From assembly GCA_035559535.1 (NCBI GenBank), contig DATMBG010000048.1, forward strand, positions 1-35,230: DNA of 35,230 nucleotides, written 5' to 3'. Below the pieces are notes generated by a model that saw nothing but the letters and a program-made list of their open reading frames with translations, had not been told where the DNA came from and did no database searches. The translations under genes and the position numbers were made by a program. Each line of letters begins with the position of its first letter. Position 1 is the first letter of the stretch. Below, one piece after another: positions 1-6,493 of the stretch. The DNA is from Candidatus Limnocylindrales bacterium. Its GTDB lineage: Bacteria; Moduliflexota; Moduliflexia; Moduliflexales; JAUQPW01.

Positions 1-208
1 TGCCGCCATAAAACAGAGCAAGCCCAGGGGCGGTCATCATCAAAACCAGGGCCGCTGAGGTCAGCATCCAGGCCGTATCTCCGGCACTAATTTGAGGGGG
101 AGGGGTCTCCTCGGCACTCCATGCAAAGTTCAAATTTCCAACCCCCCCTATAAAGATGAGACTTCCTAGGAGAAGGCTCATTAATCTTACAGATAATTTT
201 CCTGTCAT
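1..208 (-). CDS. amtB: Ammonium transporter AmtB, N-terminal part (runs off the window)
   Basis: Not in the ORF track. Manual translation from ATG at 208: [69 protein letters not shown], containing the Amt signature [30 protein letters not shown] at 217-223. Confidence 0.93.
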
Positions 209-509: not shown

Positions 510-1337
510 CTATTTTTTAGGCAGAACCGTTTTTTCAATCCCATCTTGCCCACAAATTGGGCACCGGGGATCTGAATAGATCTCGATGGAAAGGAGCCGG
601 TAATTTAGCTCATCGTAATAAAGGTAATAGGGGTGCTGATCCCCGGGGTTTATCAAATAGTTTACCAGTAAATTGAGTCCTATATTTGCTATGACAGCAT
701 TCAGGGTAATAACACTGGGAGAGGATAAATGGGTATTCTGAATATAACCGGTGGCCCGACGAGCCTGTTCCAGGGTTTCTGAGTATCCTTGAACTTTTAG
801 ACCCTGGCAGAGTAAACAGGGCCCTCCGGGTCTATAAAATCGAACCTGGGCCCCTTTTTCCTGAAGAGTCCCTTCGGGGGAAAGAATAATCCCAGACCCC
901 AGATCTAATAAAGGTTTTCCTTGCTGTGAGGCAAAGAGTTGCAAAGCCAGTCGGGAAAGATTATTATCTAGACCGCCAATCCAAACCTCTGGAGCAGGAA
1001 GAAGATCTTCAGTATCCAACAGGTTTTGGAGGTCGGTGGGAAAGGTTTTAACAAAGGCCTGGGGATTAAAAGAAAGGACGGTTTGTTTTAAAAACTCAAC
1101 TTTGTATTTGCCCACATCGGATTCTTGAACTCCTGGGAGCCTGTTAAAATTGGACAGTTCCACACGGTCAGGATCTATGAGAAGAAATTTGCTAAAACCC
1201 ACATGCATGGCACTTTGAACAAAGATGGCTCCAAGGCCGCCACATCCGAAAACGGCCAGGATGGTATCAAAGATTTTTTGTTGGGCCGCTTCTCCCAACC
1301 AACGAATATTTCGGTCCCACCGTTCTAAACTCAACAA
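510..1337 (-). CDS. ThiF/MoeB-family E1-like adenylyltransferase
   Basis: RWDRN..Q start, GCGGLG nucleotide-binding loop, DPDRVELSNFNR, GKYKV, GLDN..SR, and two Zn-binding CxxC motifs (CLLC, CPIC). TTG start with no clear RBS; an in-frame stop at 1362-1364 limits upstream extension. Confidence 0.9.
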   Translation of the reverse strand: MLSLERWDRNIRWLGEAAQQKIFDTILAVFGCGGLGAIFVQSAMHVGFSKFLLIDPDRVELSNFNRLPGVQESDVGKYKVEFLKQTVLSFNPQAFVKTFPTDLQNLLDTEDLLPAPEVWIGGLDNNLSRLALQLFASQQGKPLLDLGSGIILSPEGTLQEKGAQVRFYRPGGPCLLCQGLKVQGYSETLEQARRATGYIQNTHLSSPSVITLNAVIANIGLNLLVNYLINPGDQHPYYLYYDELNYRLLSIEIYSDPRCPICGQDGIEKTVLPKK

Positions 1338-1397
1338 ATTATAAAGAAAGAAGAAAGAAGGCTAAATCTTCTCGTAGGATTTAACCTTCCTCTTCCC

Positions 1398-1814
1398 CTA
1401 CTGCCGCTTTCCCTGTTGGAGTTCTGCTAACTGAATGAGCAGCATTTCGATAAAAGTTAAGATGTTATCATCTGAATGCCAGACGGGATGGACGCATATC
1501 CAACACCAGCCTTTGTCTACATACCGGTTAAAGTGTGAATACTGACTATCGAAATAGTGAGGGATATCCACCCATTTCCCCTCCCGATTCATTTTTAATC
1601 CGGGACTGATATAAGCTTCCTCTAAACCAACTCCATATTGGTAAAAATCCGGGATGATAATCAATAGATTGGTCCATTTTTGATTAAACCCGGGCGGAAG
1701 TTTCACCCGATTGATCTGAACCCAGCTATAGTCGTAACTCCAGAGTACGTGATCTTTACCGTAGATTTTCTCACACAGTTCAATCTCTGTTTTCAACCGT
1801 TTGAGGTTGCGCAT
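1398..1814 (-). CDS. Prokaryotic E2/UBC-fold protein (E2 family E-like)
   Basis: N-terminal helix KRLKTEIEL, LPPGFN, LLIIIPDFY, and GWCWICVH..W..DNILTFI resembling the UBC active-site region (candidate Cys107). Lies between a Ubl and an E1. Confidence 0.72.
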   Translation of the reverse strand: MRNLKRLKTEIELCEKIYGKDHVLWSYDYSWVQINRVKLPPGFNQKWTNLLIIIPDFYQYGVGLEEAYISPGLKMNREGKWVDIPHYFDSQYSHFNRYVDKGWCWICVHPVWHSDDNILTFIEMLLIQLAELQQGKRQ

Positions 1815-1819
1815 AGAAC

Positions 1820-2035
1820 CTAACCAGAGGCAAAAGAACTGAGGACCTCGATCCGGGCCTGATCTTTAACCGGAATCGGATGATATTCGGGAACTCGGGT
1901 ATAGGAATCGGATTCGTCTTTAATCAGATAAATATCTTTGGTAGGGGGTATTTGAAGGGTTTTCCTTAACTCAGCTCCGGTTACTTTAGCCGGAACTTGC
2001 ACAGGATGTCCTTGCACATCGTAAAGGGTCGGCAT
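1820..2035 (-). CDS. Ubiquitin-like (beta-grasp) protein ending in Gly
   Basis: 71 aa with a beta-beta-alpha (VTGAELRKTL)-beta pattern and C-terminus SSFASG. Its stop is 5 bp before the E2 start. Confidence 0.7.
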   Translation of the reverse strand: MPTLYDVQGHPVQVPAKVTGAELRKTLQIPPTKDIYLIKDESDSYTRVPEYHPIPVKDQARIEVLSSFASG

Positions 2036-2049
2036 ATCAACTCAAGGAC

Positions 2050-2110
2050 CAGAAGTCAGAAATCAGGGGTCAGAAGCTCCCCGGCTCCTGGCCTCTGATT
2101 TCCAACTCCC
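2050..2110. repeat. Degenerate heptamer tandem repeats in inverted arrangement
   Basis: CAGAAGT CAGAAAT CAGGGGT CAGAAGC followed by complementary CTCCTGG CCTCTGA TTTCCAA units. Confidence 0.6.
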
Positions 2111-2135
2111 TGGGTTTGCTAGGGTTTTTGGAGTT

Positions 2136-2579
2136 CTACCACCTTCCTAAAAAAGCCCTCCATTCTCGAATGGTATGATATCCCACATAACCAATAACCA
2201 AAATGAGGGCCAGAAGGAGAAGAGAGACCCAGTACACGGGATTATCTAAAAAGTGATCGTAGACGACCTTCAGGTAAAATCCTATCAAAATAAGATAGGT
2301 CACCGTTAAAAACAACATCAGCAGGTAAAGCCACCATTTATTCAGGGTTATAGCTAAAGCCCCGGATAAGATCGGAAGCCAAAGCCCTCCCCCATACCAG
2401 TTGTAAAAACCCAGTGAGCCTATGAAAAGTAAAACAGAGAGAATTTTTAATCCCCTTACCAGCATCCGAATCAGACGTGCAGATGTTCGCGGATAGGAAG
2501 AGGTAGAACGGGATGGATAAAAAGTTTCTGAAACTCCCAGGGGATTGACAGGTATCTCTCGTGACTGAACTTGTGGCAT
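2136..2579 (-). CDS. Hypothetical multi-pass (3-4 TM) membrane protein
   Basis: RBS GGGAGG before the ATG. Ser/Pro-rich N-terminal tail followed by hydrophobic segments. Confidence 0.8.
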   Translation of the reverse strand: MPQVQSREIPVNPLGVSETFYPSRSTSSYPRTSARLIRMLVRGLKILSVLLFIGSLGFYNWYGGGLWLPILSGALAITLNKWWLYLLMLFLTVTYLILIGFYLKVVYDHFLDNPVYWVSLLLLALILVIGYVGYHTIREWRAFLGRW

Positions 2580-2641: not shown

Positions 2642-2694
2642 TTCGTCTTTTATTCGCTTATTTAATAATGGAAATAAAAGACGAAACTTGTCAA
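2642..2694 (-). promoter_or_regulatory. Candidate sigma-70 promoter overlapped by a perfect 13-bp inverted repeat
   Basis: TTGACA at 2689-2694 and CATTAT at 2665-2670 on the minus strand. Repeat arms TTCGTCTTTTATT (2642-2654) and AATAAAAGACGAA (2673-2685). Confidence 0.6.
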
Positions 2695-2878: not shown

Positions 2879-3100
2879 TCAGATTCCTTCCATCTCCCGG
2901 ATTTTTTCCGCCAGGAAGTTAAGTTGTTTTTGAAATTCTTCCTCAGAAGCTTCCAAATCGATAGTAACCACAGGTTTCCGCCCAACGATGCGCTTAAACC
3001 CAACATGTTCCTCTAGAATGAATTTATCCAAATCTCCTTTATAAATAAGAAGGAAACCCCCCTGAGGGTCTAAAATTTTTATAAAATCGTGTTCTCGCAA
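2879..3100 (-). CDS. Small hypothetical protein (73 aa)
   Basis: TTG start with RBS AAGGAGG, protein-like composition and a strong promoter upstream. Confidence 0.7.
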   Translation of the reverse strand: MREHDFIKILDPQGGFLLIYKGDLDKFILEEHVGFKRIVGRKPVVTIDLEASEEEFQKQLNFLAEKIREMEGI

Positions 3101-3179
3101 AGAAATTCCTCCTTATAGCTTTGCTTCAGAATAAAAGGATCAATTAACGGTTCGGCAATTTCTCCAACAGGTTGTTAAG

Positions 3180-3207
3180 ATTATAACCTACAAGATAAAT
3201 ACGTCAA
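3180..3207 (-). promoter_or_regulatory. Sigma-70 promoter
   Basis: TTGACG-N16-TATAAT on the minus strand, about 80 nt upstream of the 73-aa ORF. Confidence 0.7.
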
Positions 3208-3510
3208 ATTATTTATCATTTTTTCCTTGAAAGATTAAAAAAAGCAAAAAAGGTAAAACCGATACAAAATCCCAGGGACAATGCAACAATTATGAGGATA
3301 AGATCCATCATACAAACCCTCCCATGGGTAAACGGTCGGTCGGTATACAAAATTTATCCATCGACTTATCTTGCATGCTAAGATAGACCTTCAATAAAAC
3401 CTGGATAGATAGAAATGTCAAGAAAAAAATTAAAAGGAGGGAATTCAACCTTCTTCCCTCCTTTCACAAGATCAGGGAGGATTTTCCCGTTAAGGGTCAG
3501 GATGTATCGG

Positions 3511-4512
3511 CTATTCCTCGACTTTTTTAATATAACGGGCCGAAACATATCCCACACGTCCATCGGGTAACTTAACCTTATACCACTCGCCGGAAGACTG
3601 GAGAATTTCAACTTCTTCTCCTTTCTTAAGCCTGGTAAGGACCTTAAAGGTTTCCCCCTCCCCTTCTCGCACATTCAGAGTTCCGGTTTTAATATTGGTA
3701 ATTCCTTTAACGGGTTTTTTCTCTTTTCTGGGCGGTGGTGGGGCAGTTTTCTCTGAAGAGTTTGGGAGAGTGTTTTCCTTTGATTGATCGGAAACCTCGG
3801 AAGTAACCGGAGAGGGTTTTTTCTCCTCTATCTCTGCCGTGGTTTTTTCTTCTGATGGACTGGGAACTTCAGAGGGTTTTTTCTCCTTCATACCGACCCC
3901 AGAAGGGGGTTTCTCCCGGCCTGTATTAGGCTCTTCGGTTTTGGGCGGAGAGGTATCCAGGGGTCGGGCATCCAACTCTGCAACTTTTTCCAGGTCGATA
4001 TCCAGGTCTCCATGCCTGGTTTTAACCTTCATCGTTTTCGTTAAAAATTCCCCTGTGAAAACATTGCCATCGTTCATTTTCACTTTATTATTCTGTACGG
4101 TTACAACATTTCTCATATCTAAGGCCAGATCTCCATAAGGGGATCGAATTTTTAACCTGTCGAGGAAAATATCTCCTTTAATGGAAGTGCCATCCCGAAG
4201 TTGGATTTGAGCAGAACGAATGCTAGGTTCCTGGGATATTTCTGGATTCAAATTAGTCGTTGGGGGAGGAACGGTTGGAGTTGCAGAAGGGGCTACAGTT
4301 TGATCGGAAGCAGGTGAGCGACCGGTAGGTTCTTGAGTTTTTCCCTTAGGAACAGGAGATGGAATCACTTTTTTTTCTGGAGGTGGTTGGATAGCCCCTT
4401 TGTTCTCAGTAACCAAGGGAGGTTTCTTACGGCTGGCAATGAAATCCAAACCCAACAGGATAAGCACCGTGATAAGTAAAAATCCCATAGCCAGTACAAG
4501 AAGCTTTTTCAT
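3511..4512 (-). CDS. Membrane-anchored protein with Pro-rich linkers and a C-terminal SH3b domain
   Basis: N-terminal TM helix. C-terminal LNVREG..LKKGEEVEIL..EWYKV..GYVSARYI is a typical bacterial SH3. Confidence 0.85.
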   Translation of the reverse strand: MKKLLVLAMGFLLITVLILLGLDFIASRKKPPLVTENKGAIQPPPEKKVIPSPVPKGKTQEPTGRSPASDQTVAPSATPTVPPPTTNLNPEISQEPSIRSAQIQLRDGTSIKGDIFLDRLKIRSPYGDLALDMRNVVTVQNNKVKMNDGNVFTGEFLTKTMKVKTRHGDLDIDLEKVAELDARPLDTSPPKTEEPNTGREKPPSGVGMKEKKPSEVPSPSEEKTTAEIEEKKPSPVTSEVSDQSKENTLPNSSEKTAPPPPRKEKKPVKGITNIKTGTLNVREGEGETFKVLTRLKKGEEVEILQSSGEWYKVKLPDGRVGYVSARYIKKVEE

Positions 4513-4795
4513 GCTATCCTCCAGTTTTAATAGAATTTAAAGGTTTTCTTCTGCCGGGGTTCATAGTTATCACTATCTGTTAACCCAAATAAATTGTCAA
4601 GGGAAGGTTTTCGGCCCTTTCCGGTATTTTATATTCAATTTTATAGAATTGAATCTTCGTTCCCGGGCTTCAGCCCCATGCCTTTGACTTAAGGTTTAAA
4701 CGTTCCGGCGAGGCTTCCTTTGGGTAGCAATGATGGAATCTAAAAATCTTCGACCTGAGAGACCTGCTGCAAGGGGATCCAAGGGATCAGAGAAA

Positions 4796-5170
4796 TCATC
4801 CTTGTTTGATAAAGATATACTCAACCCCACGATTTCCTATAAAAACACTGATAAAGAAACTGATGATACTCAAAATAATAGCCCCCACCAGGGCAGACCA
4901 GAAGTCTGTAATCACAAAACCTTCTACGAGCTTAGAAGCCATCATGAGCATAAAGGCATTAACGACAAAGGTAAACAATCCGAGGGTAAGTATATTAAGG
5001 GGAAGGGTTAAAAGGAGAATGATAGGTCTCAGAAGGGCATTCAGGATTCCCAGAACCAAAGAAGCTATCAAAAGAGTTCCCAGACCCTGGATATCGATTC
5101 CCTTAACCAGCCAACTGGTCAGGCCTAAGGCGATGGCATTGATGAACCAGCGAATTAAGAATCCTCTCAT
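4796..5170 (-). CDS. YvlD/DUF360 holin-like 4-TM membrane protein
   Basis: Motif LNALLRPIILLLTLPLNILTLGLFTFVVNA. No phage genes nearby. Confidence 0.9.
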   Translation of the reverse strand: MRGFLIRWFINAIALGLTSWLVKGIDIQGLGTLLIASLVLGILNALLRPIILLLTLPLNILTLGLFTFVVNAFMLMMASKLVEGFVITDFWSALVGAIILSIISFFISVFIGNRGVEYIFIKQG

Positions 5171-5299
5171 AGAGATTTAAAGGGCAAGCCGGGATCCCTT
5201 AAAGGTTGGATCGGCCTTTGTCCTTTTTTTAAGATTTTATCAATTTATCGAAATATTCAAAACCATGCAAGCTCAACGGAAGCTGGCATGAAGTAGTCT

Positions 5300-6493
5300 T
5301 TATTCACTTCGACGAATATGGCAATCTTTACGTTTCAATACCTCCGGCAGGAGCTTGAGTCCGAGTCCTGGGGCCTGAGGAGGGCGGATCATTCCCTTCT
5401 CGATGGGAGGAAGGTCGGTAACCAATTGTCCATACCAGCCGTAGTAGAAGGCTCGAACGATCTCCTGGATAAAGCAGTTACGGGTATTCAGGGCCAGATG
5501 AGTTGAAGCCGTAAGTACCACAGGACCGGTACAATCATGGAAGGCCACAGGTACATGCCAGGCTTCGGCCATAGCCGCGATTTTACGTGCCTCTGACAGG
5601 CCTCCACACCAGGAGAGGTCCAGAATAATCAGACTCAAGGCATCCATTTCCAGGAGATAGCGAAAATCGGCACGTCCGCCACGGGTCTCCCCCACGGCAA
5701 TGGGGACTGTTGTAGAACGGGCCACTTCTTCAAGGCTGTGCAGATGATCCATAAAGACCGGATCTTCGACCCAAAGGGGATCATACGGCTCCAGGGCGCG
5801 GGTTATTTTTACCGCCATGGGTCGGTTCCACAGGGAATGGAGTTCGGCCATTACATCCATCTTATCTCCAACGGCTTTTCGAATCTTCTCGAAGGGTTCC
5901 AGGGCCTTTTTAAGGTCCGCTGCGGAAATATACTGACCGTTAGAGGCTTCGGCAGCATAATCGAAGGGCCAAATCTTCATTCCGGTAATACCCATCTCCA
6001 GCAGGCTGTGGGCCAGCTCATCTGCACGGTTCAAAAAAGCCTCCAGATCTTCATAAGGGCCTTCCGTAGCCCCAAGACCGAAGTTCGCCGTACCCTGGGT
6101 GGGTCGATTTTGCACATATCTATACCCTGCACAGGTATTGTAGACCCGAATACTATCCCGGATGGATCCGCCTAAAAGTTGATGGATAGGTTGATGGGTT
6201 GCCTGCCCCCATAAATCCCACAAGGCAATATCGACGGCAGACCGACCCCGCATCTCGGCACTGGTTCCTACAAATCCCACATAACCGATGAGATGGGCCT
6301 GATGCCGATCGATTTTCAAAGGATCCTGCCCAAGCAAATAAGGTGCAATAATATGATGAATGTGGGCTTCCGCCGAATGGGGACCATAAAAAGTCTCCCC
6401 TAAGCCTACGAGACCCTCATCGGTATGAATCTGGACCCACAATAAGTTTGGAAACTCTTCCACACGGATCGTTTCAATAGCGGTAATTTTCAT
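5300..6493 (-). CDS. Mandelate racemase/muconate lactonizing enzyme family protein (DgoD/RspA-like dehydratase)
   Basis: MKITAIET, TDEGLVGLGE, SAVDIALWDL, WVEDP, PIAVGE and PGLG motifs. Confidence 0.92.
   Translation of the reverse strand: MKITAIETIRVEEFPNLLWVQIHTDEGLVGLGETFYGPHSAEAHIHHIIAPYLLGQDPLKIDRHQAHLIGYVGFVGTSAEMRGRSAVDIALWDLWGQATHQPIHQLLGGSIRDSIRVYNTCAGYRYVQNRPTQGTANFGLGATEGPYEDLEAFLNRADELAHSLLEMGITGMKIWPFDYAAEASNGQYISAADLKKALEPFEKIRKAVGDKMDVMAELHSLWNRPMAVKITRALEPYDPLWVEDPVFMDHLHSLEEVARSTTVPIAVGETRGGRADFRYLLEMDALSLIILDLSWCGGLSEARKIAAMAEAWHVPVAFHDCTGPVVLTASTHLALNTRNCFIQEIVRAFYYGWYGQLVTDLPPIEKGMIRPPQAPGLGLKLLPEVLKRKDCHIRRSE

Follow-up and report, generated by a model that had tools for sequence, protein, structure and literature searches.

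Among the bacterial ubiquitination-like systems described so far, those closest to the locus reported here are the Bub operons. They were described by Iyer et al. (2006) as type 6e, which combines a poly-ubiquitin-like protein with an inactive, cysteine-free E2/RWD-like domain, an E1 fused to JAB and a metal-binding protein (PMC1779556), and were later renamed Bub. Type I Bub (formerly 6E.1/DUF6527) comprises BubAB, BubCD and BubE of Citrobacter sp. RHBSTW-00271 (PDB 9ea4, 9eae and 9d59); according to Ye et al. (bioRxiv 10.1101/2024.11.21.623953), BubA, BubB and BubCD perform conjugation by way of the E1 crossover-loop Tyr370 and the E2 Ser333, the E2 has an invariant Ser333-x-His335 together with Asp299 and forms an oxyester, and BubE is encoded by all Bub operons. 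In this study we analyse a DNA stretch of 35,230 nt (the window) from Candidatus Limnocylindrales bacterium (GCA_035559535.1, contig DATMBG010000048.1, positions 1-35,230), in which an operon at 510..2579 encodes a membrane protein, a ubiquitin-like protein (Ubl), an E2 and an E1. On the whole, this operon is most aptly regarded as a Cys-type offshoot of the Bub lineage, minimal and devoid of a peptidase, from which four defining features of Type I Bub are missing, namely the Ubl-E2 fusion, the JAB peptidase, BubE and the serine of the E2. We hold it moderately probable that the four genes encode a working Ubl-conjugation cascade that does without a peptidase, shares common stock with Type I Bub, uses a cysteine E2 and has the membrane protein as its partner. 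The features are as follows, all on the minus strand.

2136..2579 (-): membrane protein, 147 amino acids, with 3-4 predicted transmembrane helices and a predicted cytoplasmic N-terminal tail (open reading frame (ORF) and hydropathy)
2541..2579 (-): conserved N-terminal peptide MPxVQxxEIPxN, codons 1-13 of the membrane protein (alignment)
1820..2035 (-): Ubl, 71 amino acids, predicted to form one beta-grasp domain, with Gly71 right before the stop (ORF, AlphaFold2 model and alignment)
1398..1814 (-): E2 of predicted UBC fold, 138 amino acids, with the candidate active site Cys107-x-His109 plus Glu65/Glu66 (ORF, model and alignment)
510..1337 (-): E1, 275 amino acids, a single ThiF domain with a CxxC...CxxC zinc motif and the putative crossover-loop Tyr198, without JAB (ORF, Pfam and profile)
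2665..2694 (-): sigma-70-like promoter match TTGACA-18 nt-CATTAT, 10/12 matches, 5' of the membrane gene (weak evidence)

The ORF list and Pfam agree with the preliminary description of the locus, which had been made from the sequence alone and had listed four co-oriented genes for a membrane protein, a 71-residue protein, a 138-residue protein 5 bp further on and a single-domain ThiF E1. The gaps are 100 bp between the membrane gene and the Ubl gene, 5 bp between Ubl and E2, and 60 bp between E2 and E1. A Shine-Dalgarno-like GGGAGG precedes the ATG of the membrane gene, the Ubl ends in ...FASG followed by the stop, and the E1 starts with TTG. Promoter-type matches in the scan number 7 against 5.5 expected in shuffles and are thus not enriched, and no terminator-like site was found between the operon genes on the coding strand, in a scan that is likewise not above shuffled expectation. 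This arrangement is consistent with a single transcript for the four genes.

The E2 is considered first. Its AlphaFold2 model, built with the family alignment, has a predicted local distance difference test score (pLDDT) of 94.1 and a predicted template modelling score (pTM) of 0.87. In Foldseek the top match of the model is BubB (9eae_C, E 1.6e-4, TM 0.59/0.63), followed mostly by UBC-fold E2s with weak E-values, and in VIA BubB is again first (Z 13.7, root-mean-square deviation (rmsd) 2.7 Å, 120 residues); the other 49 of the 50 entries listed are all UBC-fold proteins or ubiquitin E2 variants, with Z of 9.3-10.7, and include Ubc7 bound to the U7BR of Cue1p (4jqu_A, Z 9.9). The UBC fold predicted earlier for the 138-residue protein is thereby confirmed at the level of the model, with BubB as the nearest solved relative. 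At the level of sequence, a word-index search with the E2 returns the protein itself and one other at 83% identity, and phmmer against 1.84 billion cluster representatives returns 91 proteins at E <= 1e-3, 41 of these at <= 1e-10. In an alignment of 35 family members, P40, P55, Y58, H86, W103, C107 and L129 are near-invariant; 22 of the 35 match Pfam Prok-E2_E at E <= 0.01 (best 8.1e-9), and one matches Multi_ubiq. Searched against the PDB, the profile of this family meets two distinct sequences only, both of them Citrobacter BubB (2e-4). A match to the E2 family in one further genome (G039, E 0.004) lies inside a gene read from its sequence as a 2-oxoacid:ferredoxin oxidoreductase and is regarded as a false positive.

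The candidate active site takes the Bub arrangement with another nucleophile. An alignment of the window E2 with two BubAB-type proteins from sampled gammaproteobacteria (L025 and L026) and with the Ser-type E2 of genome G104 sets Cys107 against the Ser, His109 against the His and Glu65 against the Asp of these proteins. For a census we collected 99 sequences (90 stored matches, with two long repeat proteins left out, and 9 locus translations), of which the 89 E2 domains covering at least 90 profile positions were used. At position 107, 78 of these have Cys and 9 have Ser, with one Val and one Gln; at position 109, 64 have His and 11 have Glu. A maximum likelihood tree of the 89 domains (143 columns, bootstrap not fully settled) contains a branch with 100/99 support that splits a clade of 5 Ser-His rows, including the BubAB-type proteins and G104, from the other 84 rows, which consist of 78 Cys, 4 Ser and 2 other. 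On this tree at least 5 changes are required to account for Ser, which arises at least 4 further times within the Cys group. The window E2 thus belongs to a group of Cys type that is sister to the Bub E2s and in which serine has turned up sporadically.

The E1 matches Pfam ThiF (PF00899) at 9.5e-32 over residues 8-260 of 275, so that the ThiF domain claimed for it is confirmed, as a single domain. Models of ThiF, MoeB and SAMP-activating (UbaA) proteins in NCBIfam reach only 57-66 bits, with cut-offs of 159-450 (for example 65.7 against 450). We aligned six E1s, those of the window, of the metagenome contig L014, of locus L015 and of genomes G052, G104 and G260. Invariant in all six are G31, G33, G34, D55, D57, N63, N65, R66, K79, D124, N125 and R129, as well as the zinc motif CxxC...CxxC (C174, C177, C259 and C262) and G197-Y198 in the crossover region. 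The profile of the six finds Citrobacter BubCD first (6.7e-39), about 11 orders of magnitude ahead of the next family, Uba1 (1.2e-27). In BubCD the counterpart of G197-Y198 in the alignment is the G-Y of the crossover loop; the aligned Tyr is residue 372 by chain index in a 458-residue chain, which would be the published Tyr370 if the chain carries a two-residue tag. Apart from C32 in the nucleotide (glycine) loop, the cysteines of the window E1 are only the four of the zinc motif. The E1 therefore has a Bub-like appearance, with a tyrosine and without a catalytic cysteine, and the E2 that of a classical thioester enzyme.

The 71-residue protein has only chance-level Pfam matches (E 0.11 and 0.35) and none to Multi_ubiq at E <= 1, and the word-index search gives 3 matches, all to close relatives. 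Its AlphaFold2 model (pLDDT 83.2) has the order beta-beta-alpha-beta-beta-beta. The Foldseek rows of this model are overwhelmingly ubiquitin or ubiquitin-like proteins, with E-values of 0.013 or worse, as expected for only 71 residues; the best TM-scores, 0.71-0.74, are to bacterial multi-ubiquitin proteins, with TMq of 0.72-0.74 to 8u38. In VIA the Citrobacter multi-ubiquitin protein 9d59_A is matched with Z 9.4 and rmsd 2.2 Å over 68 residues, and 50 of the 50 listed rows are of ubiquitin fold. The model thus bears out the predicted beta-grasp and is nearest to BubA-type multi-ubiquitin domains.

It had also been proposed that the Ubl is made already mature, and the comparison with relatives supports this. 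The protein aligns over its full length with the N-terminal domains of nine Ubl-E2 fusions and with the free Ubls of relatives, and the column of Gly71 is the Ubl-E2 junction of the fusions (R-F-x-x-G/A, then x-R of the E2). Two JAB-bearing relatives have a free Ubl that continues past this glycine, by 2 residues in the Wenzhouxiangella-type L015 and by 1 in L016 from soil, and overall an unfinished tag, either with a C-terminal tail or as an N-terminal extension on the E2, occurs in 3 of 5 distinct JAB-bearing relatives. Throughout the lineage of the window, a bare E1 goes with a tag ending at Gly (the window itself, the same-genus G001 and L010, and the metagenome L014), which matches the prediction of a tag born mature; L010 is the same four-gene DNA stretch as G001, judged by motif hits. 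A Ubl ending exactly at the reactive Gly is thus found in 3 genomic or metagenomic copies of the lineage, and also in P0100. The Ubl ends at Gly in G052 and G104 too, the latter matching Multi_ubiq at 6.6e-8. Because these two keep a JAB although the tag ends at Gly, JAB does not serve for processing alone. The tag may differ again in G260, whose E2 (L023 725-1267 (+)) has Cys-x-Tyr and an N-terminal extension of about 45 residues ending ...FGG before the E2 domain; no separate Ubl ORF is seen upstream of it, and a short peptide could take the place of a beta-grasp domain as the tag.

The absence of a JAB peptidase from the operon, as claimed at the outset, stands according to the ORF list and Pfam, and the same holds for adjacent sulfur-transfer partners of thiG or moaE type, none of which is among the 26 larger window ORFs scanned with Pfam. 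In the whole assembly (completeness 95.8%) Prok-JAB exceeds its cut-off in one match only, on another contig, within a sulfur-carrier cluster.

L009 (G000 contig 42, 5000-15000), ORFs 3174-6266: sulfur-carrier cluster of a cysteine-synthase-like protein (CysM), JAB, a rhodanese-ThiF protein (MoeZ-like) and a ThiS-like protein (assigned by eye except for Prok-JAB)

The ThiS-like protein of this cluster ends in GG plus two residues. The rhodanese-ThiF frame seems to be broken into two pieces (3851-4771 and 3587-3829), pointing to a frameshift or to an error of assembly. A genome search with the JAB domain of L015 (residues 1-190), a query without a positive control, gave no match. For BubE (PF20137, DUF6527) the assembly yields nothing at E <= 0.1, although a match was obtained in the control genome set. 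However, the absence of BubE is not distinctive by itself, since PF20137 was found in none of the 5 genomes with relatives, including G502 with its BubAB/BubCD-type genes; BubE may not mark every Bub-like operon. The Ubl and the E2 each occur in one copy in the genome.

Taken together, the window operon resembles Type I Bub in many respects. Type I Bub gives the closest solved match for all three soluble proteins (BubB, BubCD and a BubA-type domain); the genes follow in the order Ubl, E2, E1, and there is no E3. The modelled Ubl is a beta-grasp of BubA (Multi_ubiq) type, the modelled E2 goes with the BubB type, which is defined by a diverged UBC fold lacking the C-terminal helix pair, the E2 has a His two residues past the nucleophile and an acidic residue about 40 residues upstream, and the E1 has the crossover-loop G-Y and no crossover-loop Cys. 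The differences are as clear. Where Type I Bub has Ser-x-His and Asp, the window has Cys107-x-His109; where BubAB is a Ubl-E2 fusion cleaved by JAB, the window has separate ORFs and a single-domain Ubl; where BubCD carries JAB on the N-terminus of the E1, the window E1 is bare and begins only 60 bp from the E2 gene; and where the Bub operon includes BubE, none was found in the genome of the window. In addition, the zinc CxxC...CxxC of the window E1 has no counterpart at the first CxxC in BubCD, the second pair lying past the aligned stretch, and unlike Type I Bub the window operon includes a membrane protein and sits among chromosomal housekeeping genes.

There are also JAB-bearing Cys-type relatives, namely a Wenzhouxiangella metagenome-assembled genome (MAG) with a sediment contig (L011/L015), G052, L016 and G260. 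As in the window, they have the E2 family with Cys at the nucleophile position and the E1 type with G-Y and zinc motif; L015, G052 and L016 also have a single-domain Ubl, and L015 a membrane protein with the same N-terminal peptide. In contrast to the window, their JAB is fused to the E1 (480-537 amino acids), the Ubls of L015 and L016 have tails, and the neighbours are MoxR-AAA and VWA genes (Wenzhouxiangella type), NYN genes (L016 and G260) or a serine recombinase with a P-loop ATPase (G052). The operon of the Ser-type G104 lies next to an HTH_3 and Peptidase_M78 pair and has JAB as a separate gene. In two of the Cys-type relatives, unrelated to each other, the NYN gene lies right upstream of the Ubl/E2 (L016 1870-2598, 1.8e-17; L023 95-415, 3.9e-13), a hint that a nuclease partner may recur in the form with JAB. 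In L015 the gene after JAB-E1 (4805-5500 (+)) encodes a 231-residue protein whose C-terminal part matches FlgD_ig (2.7e-5) and whose N-terminal ~100 residues are weakly E2-family-like with Thr at the Cys position (hhalign 32%, E 5e-4); this protein may be an inactive E2-like adaptor.

Other described systems are more distant. Type I/II Bil (BilABCD; types 6d/6c of Iyer 2006) likewise has separate Ubl, E2 and E1, a Cys E2 with a nearby His and no E3, however its E1 is a multidomain IAD-AAD-CYS protein with a catalytic Cys domain and it carries the JAB protein BilC (Chambers et al., PMC10557695), neither of which is found in the operon, where the E1 is a single domain of 275 residues. This E1 architecture rules out Bil membership, and no Bil protein is among the E2 structural matches listed (the 50 VIA entries and the Foldseek listing). 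Type II CBASS Cap2/Cap3 shares the ThiF-type adenylation domain, and Cap2 is a weak structural match of the E2 (7tqd_B, E 0.11); Cap2 is, however, an E2-E1 fusion with a CD-NTase as substrate and the JAB protein Cap3, whereas the window has separate E2 and E1 and a dedicated Ubl. No CD-NTase or other nucleotidyltransferase is found in the operon or among the 26 scanned ORFs, and without this or the fusion a Cap2 assignment is ruled out. A Bub paper by Gong et al. treats, in its available text, Ubl architectures only, and the words cysteine, membrane and transmembrane occur zero times there. We found no Cys-type Bub-like family, JAB-less form or membrane partner in the literature, although the supplementary operon tables of both Bub papers may list such. 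The preliminary description did not recognise this architecture as described, and indeed its exact form is not found in the available texts on Bub, Bil and the types of Iyer et al.; a close named relative does exist, in the Bub/Prok-E2_E lineage with its JAB-E1 fusions.

The membrane protein has no Pfam, NCBIfam or PADLOC family, and the ESM Atlas gives only scores of 0.82-0.83 to unnamed clusters; the word-index search finds homologues (5 matches, 56-98% identity) in close relatives only. Hydropathy gives three strong 19-residue hydrophobic stretches and a weaker fourth, and the N-terminal tail has a net charge of +4, so the tail should be cytoplasmic. A comparison with the Wenzhouxiangella-type operon, which has the closest E2 outside the lineage (42% identity), is informative here. 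The gene just upstream of its Ubl encodes an otherwise unrelated single-pass protein that carries LysM at its C-terminal end (Pfam 1e-12), and this protein starts with the same N-terminal peptide. All 8 aligned membrane proteins, the LysM protein among them, have M1, P2, E8, I9, P10 and N12, and identity to the window residue averages 0.86 over residues 1-13, 0.44 over residues 14-44 and 0.73 over the membrane part. Some gene calls have extensions upstream, and because these are not conserved the MPQ start is supported. Among six-frame translations of 24 sources (the loci plus the window), the peptide motif is found in these two lineages only. The tails contain no conserved lysine. G052 has two different small membrane proteins at the same position, and in the other relatives (G104, G260 and L016) no membrane gene is seen there. 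Shared by two lineages, the peptide is the best lead to a partner or target. In yeast ER-associated degradation (ER, endoplasmic reticulum), the membrane protein Cue1p recruits the soluble E2 Ubc7p via a short cytoplasmic region; the likeness to the window membrane protein is one of functional analogy only, without sequence relationship.

Based on these comparisons, the cascade may be pictured as follows. The 71-residue Ubl would be translated ending at the reactive Gly71, so that JAB processing would not be needed, as the alignment indicates. The ThiF-type E1, probably a homodimer like BubCD and UBA5, would adenylate Gly71 with ATP, judging from its conserved residues. Since the E1 has no crossover-loop cysteine, the activated Ubl would probably pass via crossover-loop Tyr198, the putative counterpart of BubCD Tyr370, or else go directly to the E2. 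It would then be loaded on Cys107 as a thioester, aided by His109 and Glu65/66 at the positions of the BubB Ser-His-Asp, as alignment and model suggest, and be passed to targets by the E2 without an E3. More speculatively, the membrane protein would be a dedicated partner whose cytoplasmic N-terminal peptide either anchors the machinery or is the substrate site. For the whole, we tentatively favour a constitutive membrane-linked role in stress or defence; the preliminary description had likewise proposed antiphage defence or a stress response.

Several points weigh against this picture. The window E2 itself scores 15.6 bits (E 0.014) with Pfam Prok-E2_E (PF14462), below the 25-bit gathering threshold, and its acidic third residue is ambiguous between E65 and E66. 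PADLOC models of Cap2-type E1-E2 proteins match residues ~2-144 only of the E1 (best 7.7e-14), that is, the adenylation core. The equivalence of Tyr198 with Tyr370 comes from a profile alignment combined with the inferred 2-residue offset, and to our knowledge a hand-off from a Tyr oxyester to a Cys thioester has no precedent. The TTG start of the E1, 60 bp past the E2 stop, has no evident ribosome-binding site. The role of the membrane protein is deduced from adjacency and one 13-residue peptide in two lineages, and the housekeeping surroundings, which are not a defence island, give no functional hint. Finally, the lack of any deconjugating peptidase departs from every characterised bacterial pathway that Ye et al. 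list (bioRxiv 10.1101/2024.11.21.623953).

The genomic context was then surveyed. The other window genes include amt, an enolase-superfamily enzyme, CobT, Cu/Zn superoxide dismutase, LepA, NFACT (RqcH-like), riboflavin genes and a molybdoenzyme. Directly 3' of the E1 and in the same orientation lies amt, both in the window (2-208 (-), running past the edge) and in G001 and L014 (7530-9398); either synteny alone or a link in function may account for this adjacency. Just upstream of the operon, the ORF at 2879-3100 (-) encodes 73 amino acids without family match in Pfam or NCBIfam; its protein is 100% identical in the same-genus genome, against 89-96% for the operon proteins, and it is not beside the operon in L014. 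Within 3 kb of the operon and on the same strand there are also a 124-residue four-helix membrane protein (4796-5170 (-), PF04020, Phage_holin_4_2, 2.4e-36) and a 333-residue protein with an N-terminal signal-anchor-like stretch and a bacterial SH3 domain (3511-4512 (-), 7.6e-16).

The distribution of the family is sparse. Its E2 profile is found in 5 of 401 genomes sampled around the window, including its own genome and a congener, and in none of 7 other genomes of the same order; in the class of the Wenzhouxiangella MAG it is found in 5 of 400 scored genomes, the MAG included (one further genome was unscored). Of the four others in that class, G502 and G500 carry BubAB-type Ser-x-His proteins and G616 a Cys-type Ubl-E2 fusion, while the fourth, the unpublished G542, underlies no claim made here. 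A locus search with a 4-row alignment finds 4 genome contigs (2 of them set aside, uninspected, as weak partial matches) and 3 metagenome contigs, and none among viral contigs. With tblastn, the window E2 has no match in 50,697 phage or 72,556 plasmid records, and the family member P0006 has none in the plasmid records. The four-gene order is kept in the same-genus G001 and in the metagenome contig L014, whose E2 is 78% identical. The module is chromosomal and vertically kept in this lineage, not mobile.

These data bear on the leading alternative, an abortive-infection antiphage system, in which the same cascade would switch a membrane-disrupting effector, the membrane protein, on or off by Ubl conjugation after infection. 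Small transmembrane effectors are common in defence systems, and the neighbourhoods of relatives point the same way, with a large serine recombinase and a P-loop ATPase near the one in G052, NYN genes in 2 loci, and a CapH/CapP-like pair of HTH_3 and Peptidase_M78 beside the Ser-type relative in G104. Bub operons are moreover reported in mobile elements, 31% of them with CapH and CapP, however the same authors could not show phage protection by any Bub operon (Ye et al., bioRxiv 10.1101/2024.11.21.623953). At the window the flanks are housekeeping genes without an adjacent recombinase or regulator, the arrangement is syntenic in the relative with 78% E2 identity, the phage and plasmid records contain no match to the E2, and the models of PADLOC cover neither the E2 nor the Ubl nor the membrane protein. 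We regard this alternative as possible but distinctly less probable than the membrane-linked conjugation cascade.

A bolder form of that cascade is put forward tentatively, as it seems unlikely to be right in every part. The relay would be mixed, from the Ubl adenylate to an E1 Tyr oxyester and then to an E2 Cys thioester, with a tag born mature and hence no need for a peptidase; the 13-residue peptide, on a membrane protein that otherwise varies, would be a docking or acceptor site for E2~Ubl; in this lineage the module would have left mobile elements and, inherited vertically, have taken on a housekeeping role as regulator of a membrane process; and the Cys-type family would stand for a thioester stage out of which, or alongside which, the cysteine-free Bub chemistry arose.

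According to a further alternative, the operon is a decaying or repurposed remnant, having lost conjugation after the loss of JAB, with proteins that persist non-enzymatically or by chance. The missing JAB and BubE would fit such a history, as would the E1 with its TTG start and no clear ribosome-binding site. Against the same-genus copy, the ratio of nonsynonymous to synonymous substitution rates (dN/dS) is 0.32 for the membrane protein, 0.21 for the Ubl, 0.06 for the E2 and 0.14 for the E1; against L014 the synonymous divergence (dS) is saturated for the E2 and membrane genes and is 1.8-2.2 for the Ubl and E1 genes, with 64-78% of residues kept. All four genes are under purifying selection, and with the same genes in the same order in a congener and in a metagenome contig, the operon is a conserved set and not a chance assembly. 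The four ORFs are intact, every residue checked at a catalytic position is kept, and the Ubl ends at the reactive Gly in the lineage copies and in P0100, which makes a remnant improbable. Least probable is a sulfur-carrier system, in which the E1 would adenylate the beta-grasp protein for a thiocarboxylate used in cofactor or thionucleoside synthesis and the UBC-like protein would be a non-catalytic accessory: the ThiF/MoeB-type E1 with its MoeB-like CxxC...CxxC, its weak best NCBIfam matches (SAMP-activating E1, ThiF and MoeB) and the single terminal Gly of the Ubl recall such systems, but those matches stay far under the cut-offs, and by profile BubCD leads the solved E1s by about 11 orders of magnitude; in the E2, Cys-x-His at the active-site position of the UBC fold is near-invariant and dN/dS is lower than for the other three genes; a rhodanese domain is missing from the E1, no thiG-, moaE- or cysM-type gene is found among the scanned window ORFs, and the genome has a separate sulfur-carrier cluster elsewhere.

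The meaning of the finding lies first in its relation to Bub, which was reported in 2024 as unusual in that Ubl conjugation proceeds without any catalytic cysteine. The closest relatives of BubB carry Cys at the position of this Ser, while the partner E1 keeps the Bub-type Tyr. The Cys and Ser systems thus form a natural pair for asking how and why thioester chemistry gave way to oxyester chemistry. In addition, the window holds the smallest complete set seen here, with a 71-residue tag, a 138-residue E2, a 275-residue E1 and no processing or deconjugating peptidase, and as a minimal system it would lend itself well to reconstitution. For its part, the N-terminal peptide that two otherwise unrelated membrane proteins have in common is a concrete candidate, open to testing, for the target or adaptor that has long been missing from pathways of this kind.

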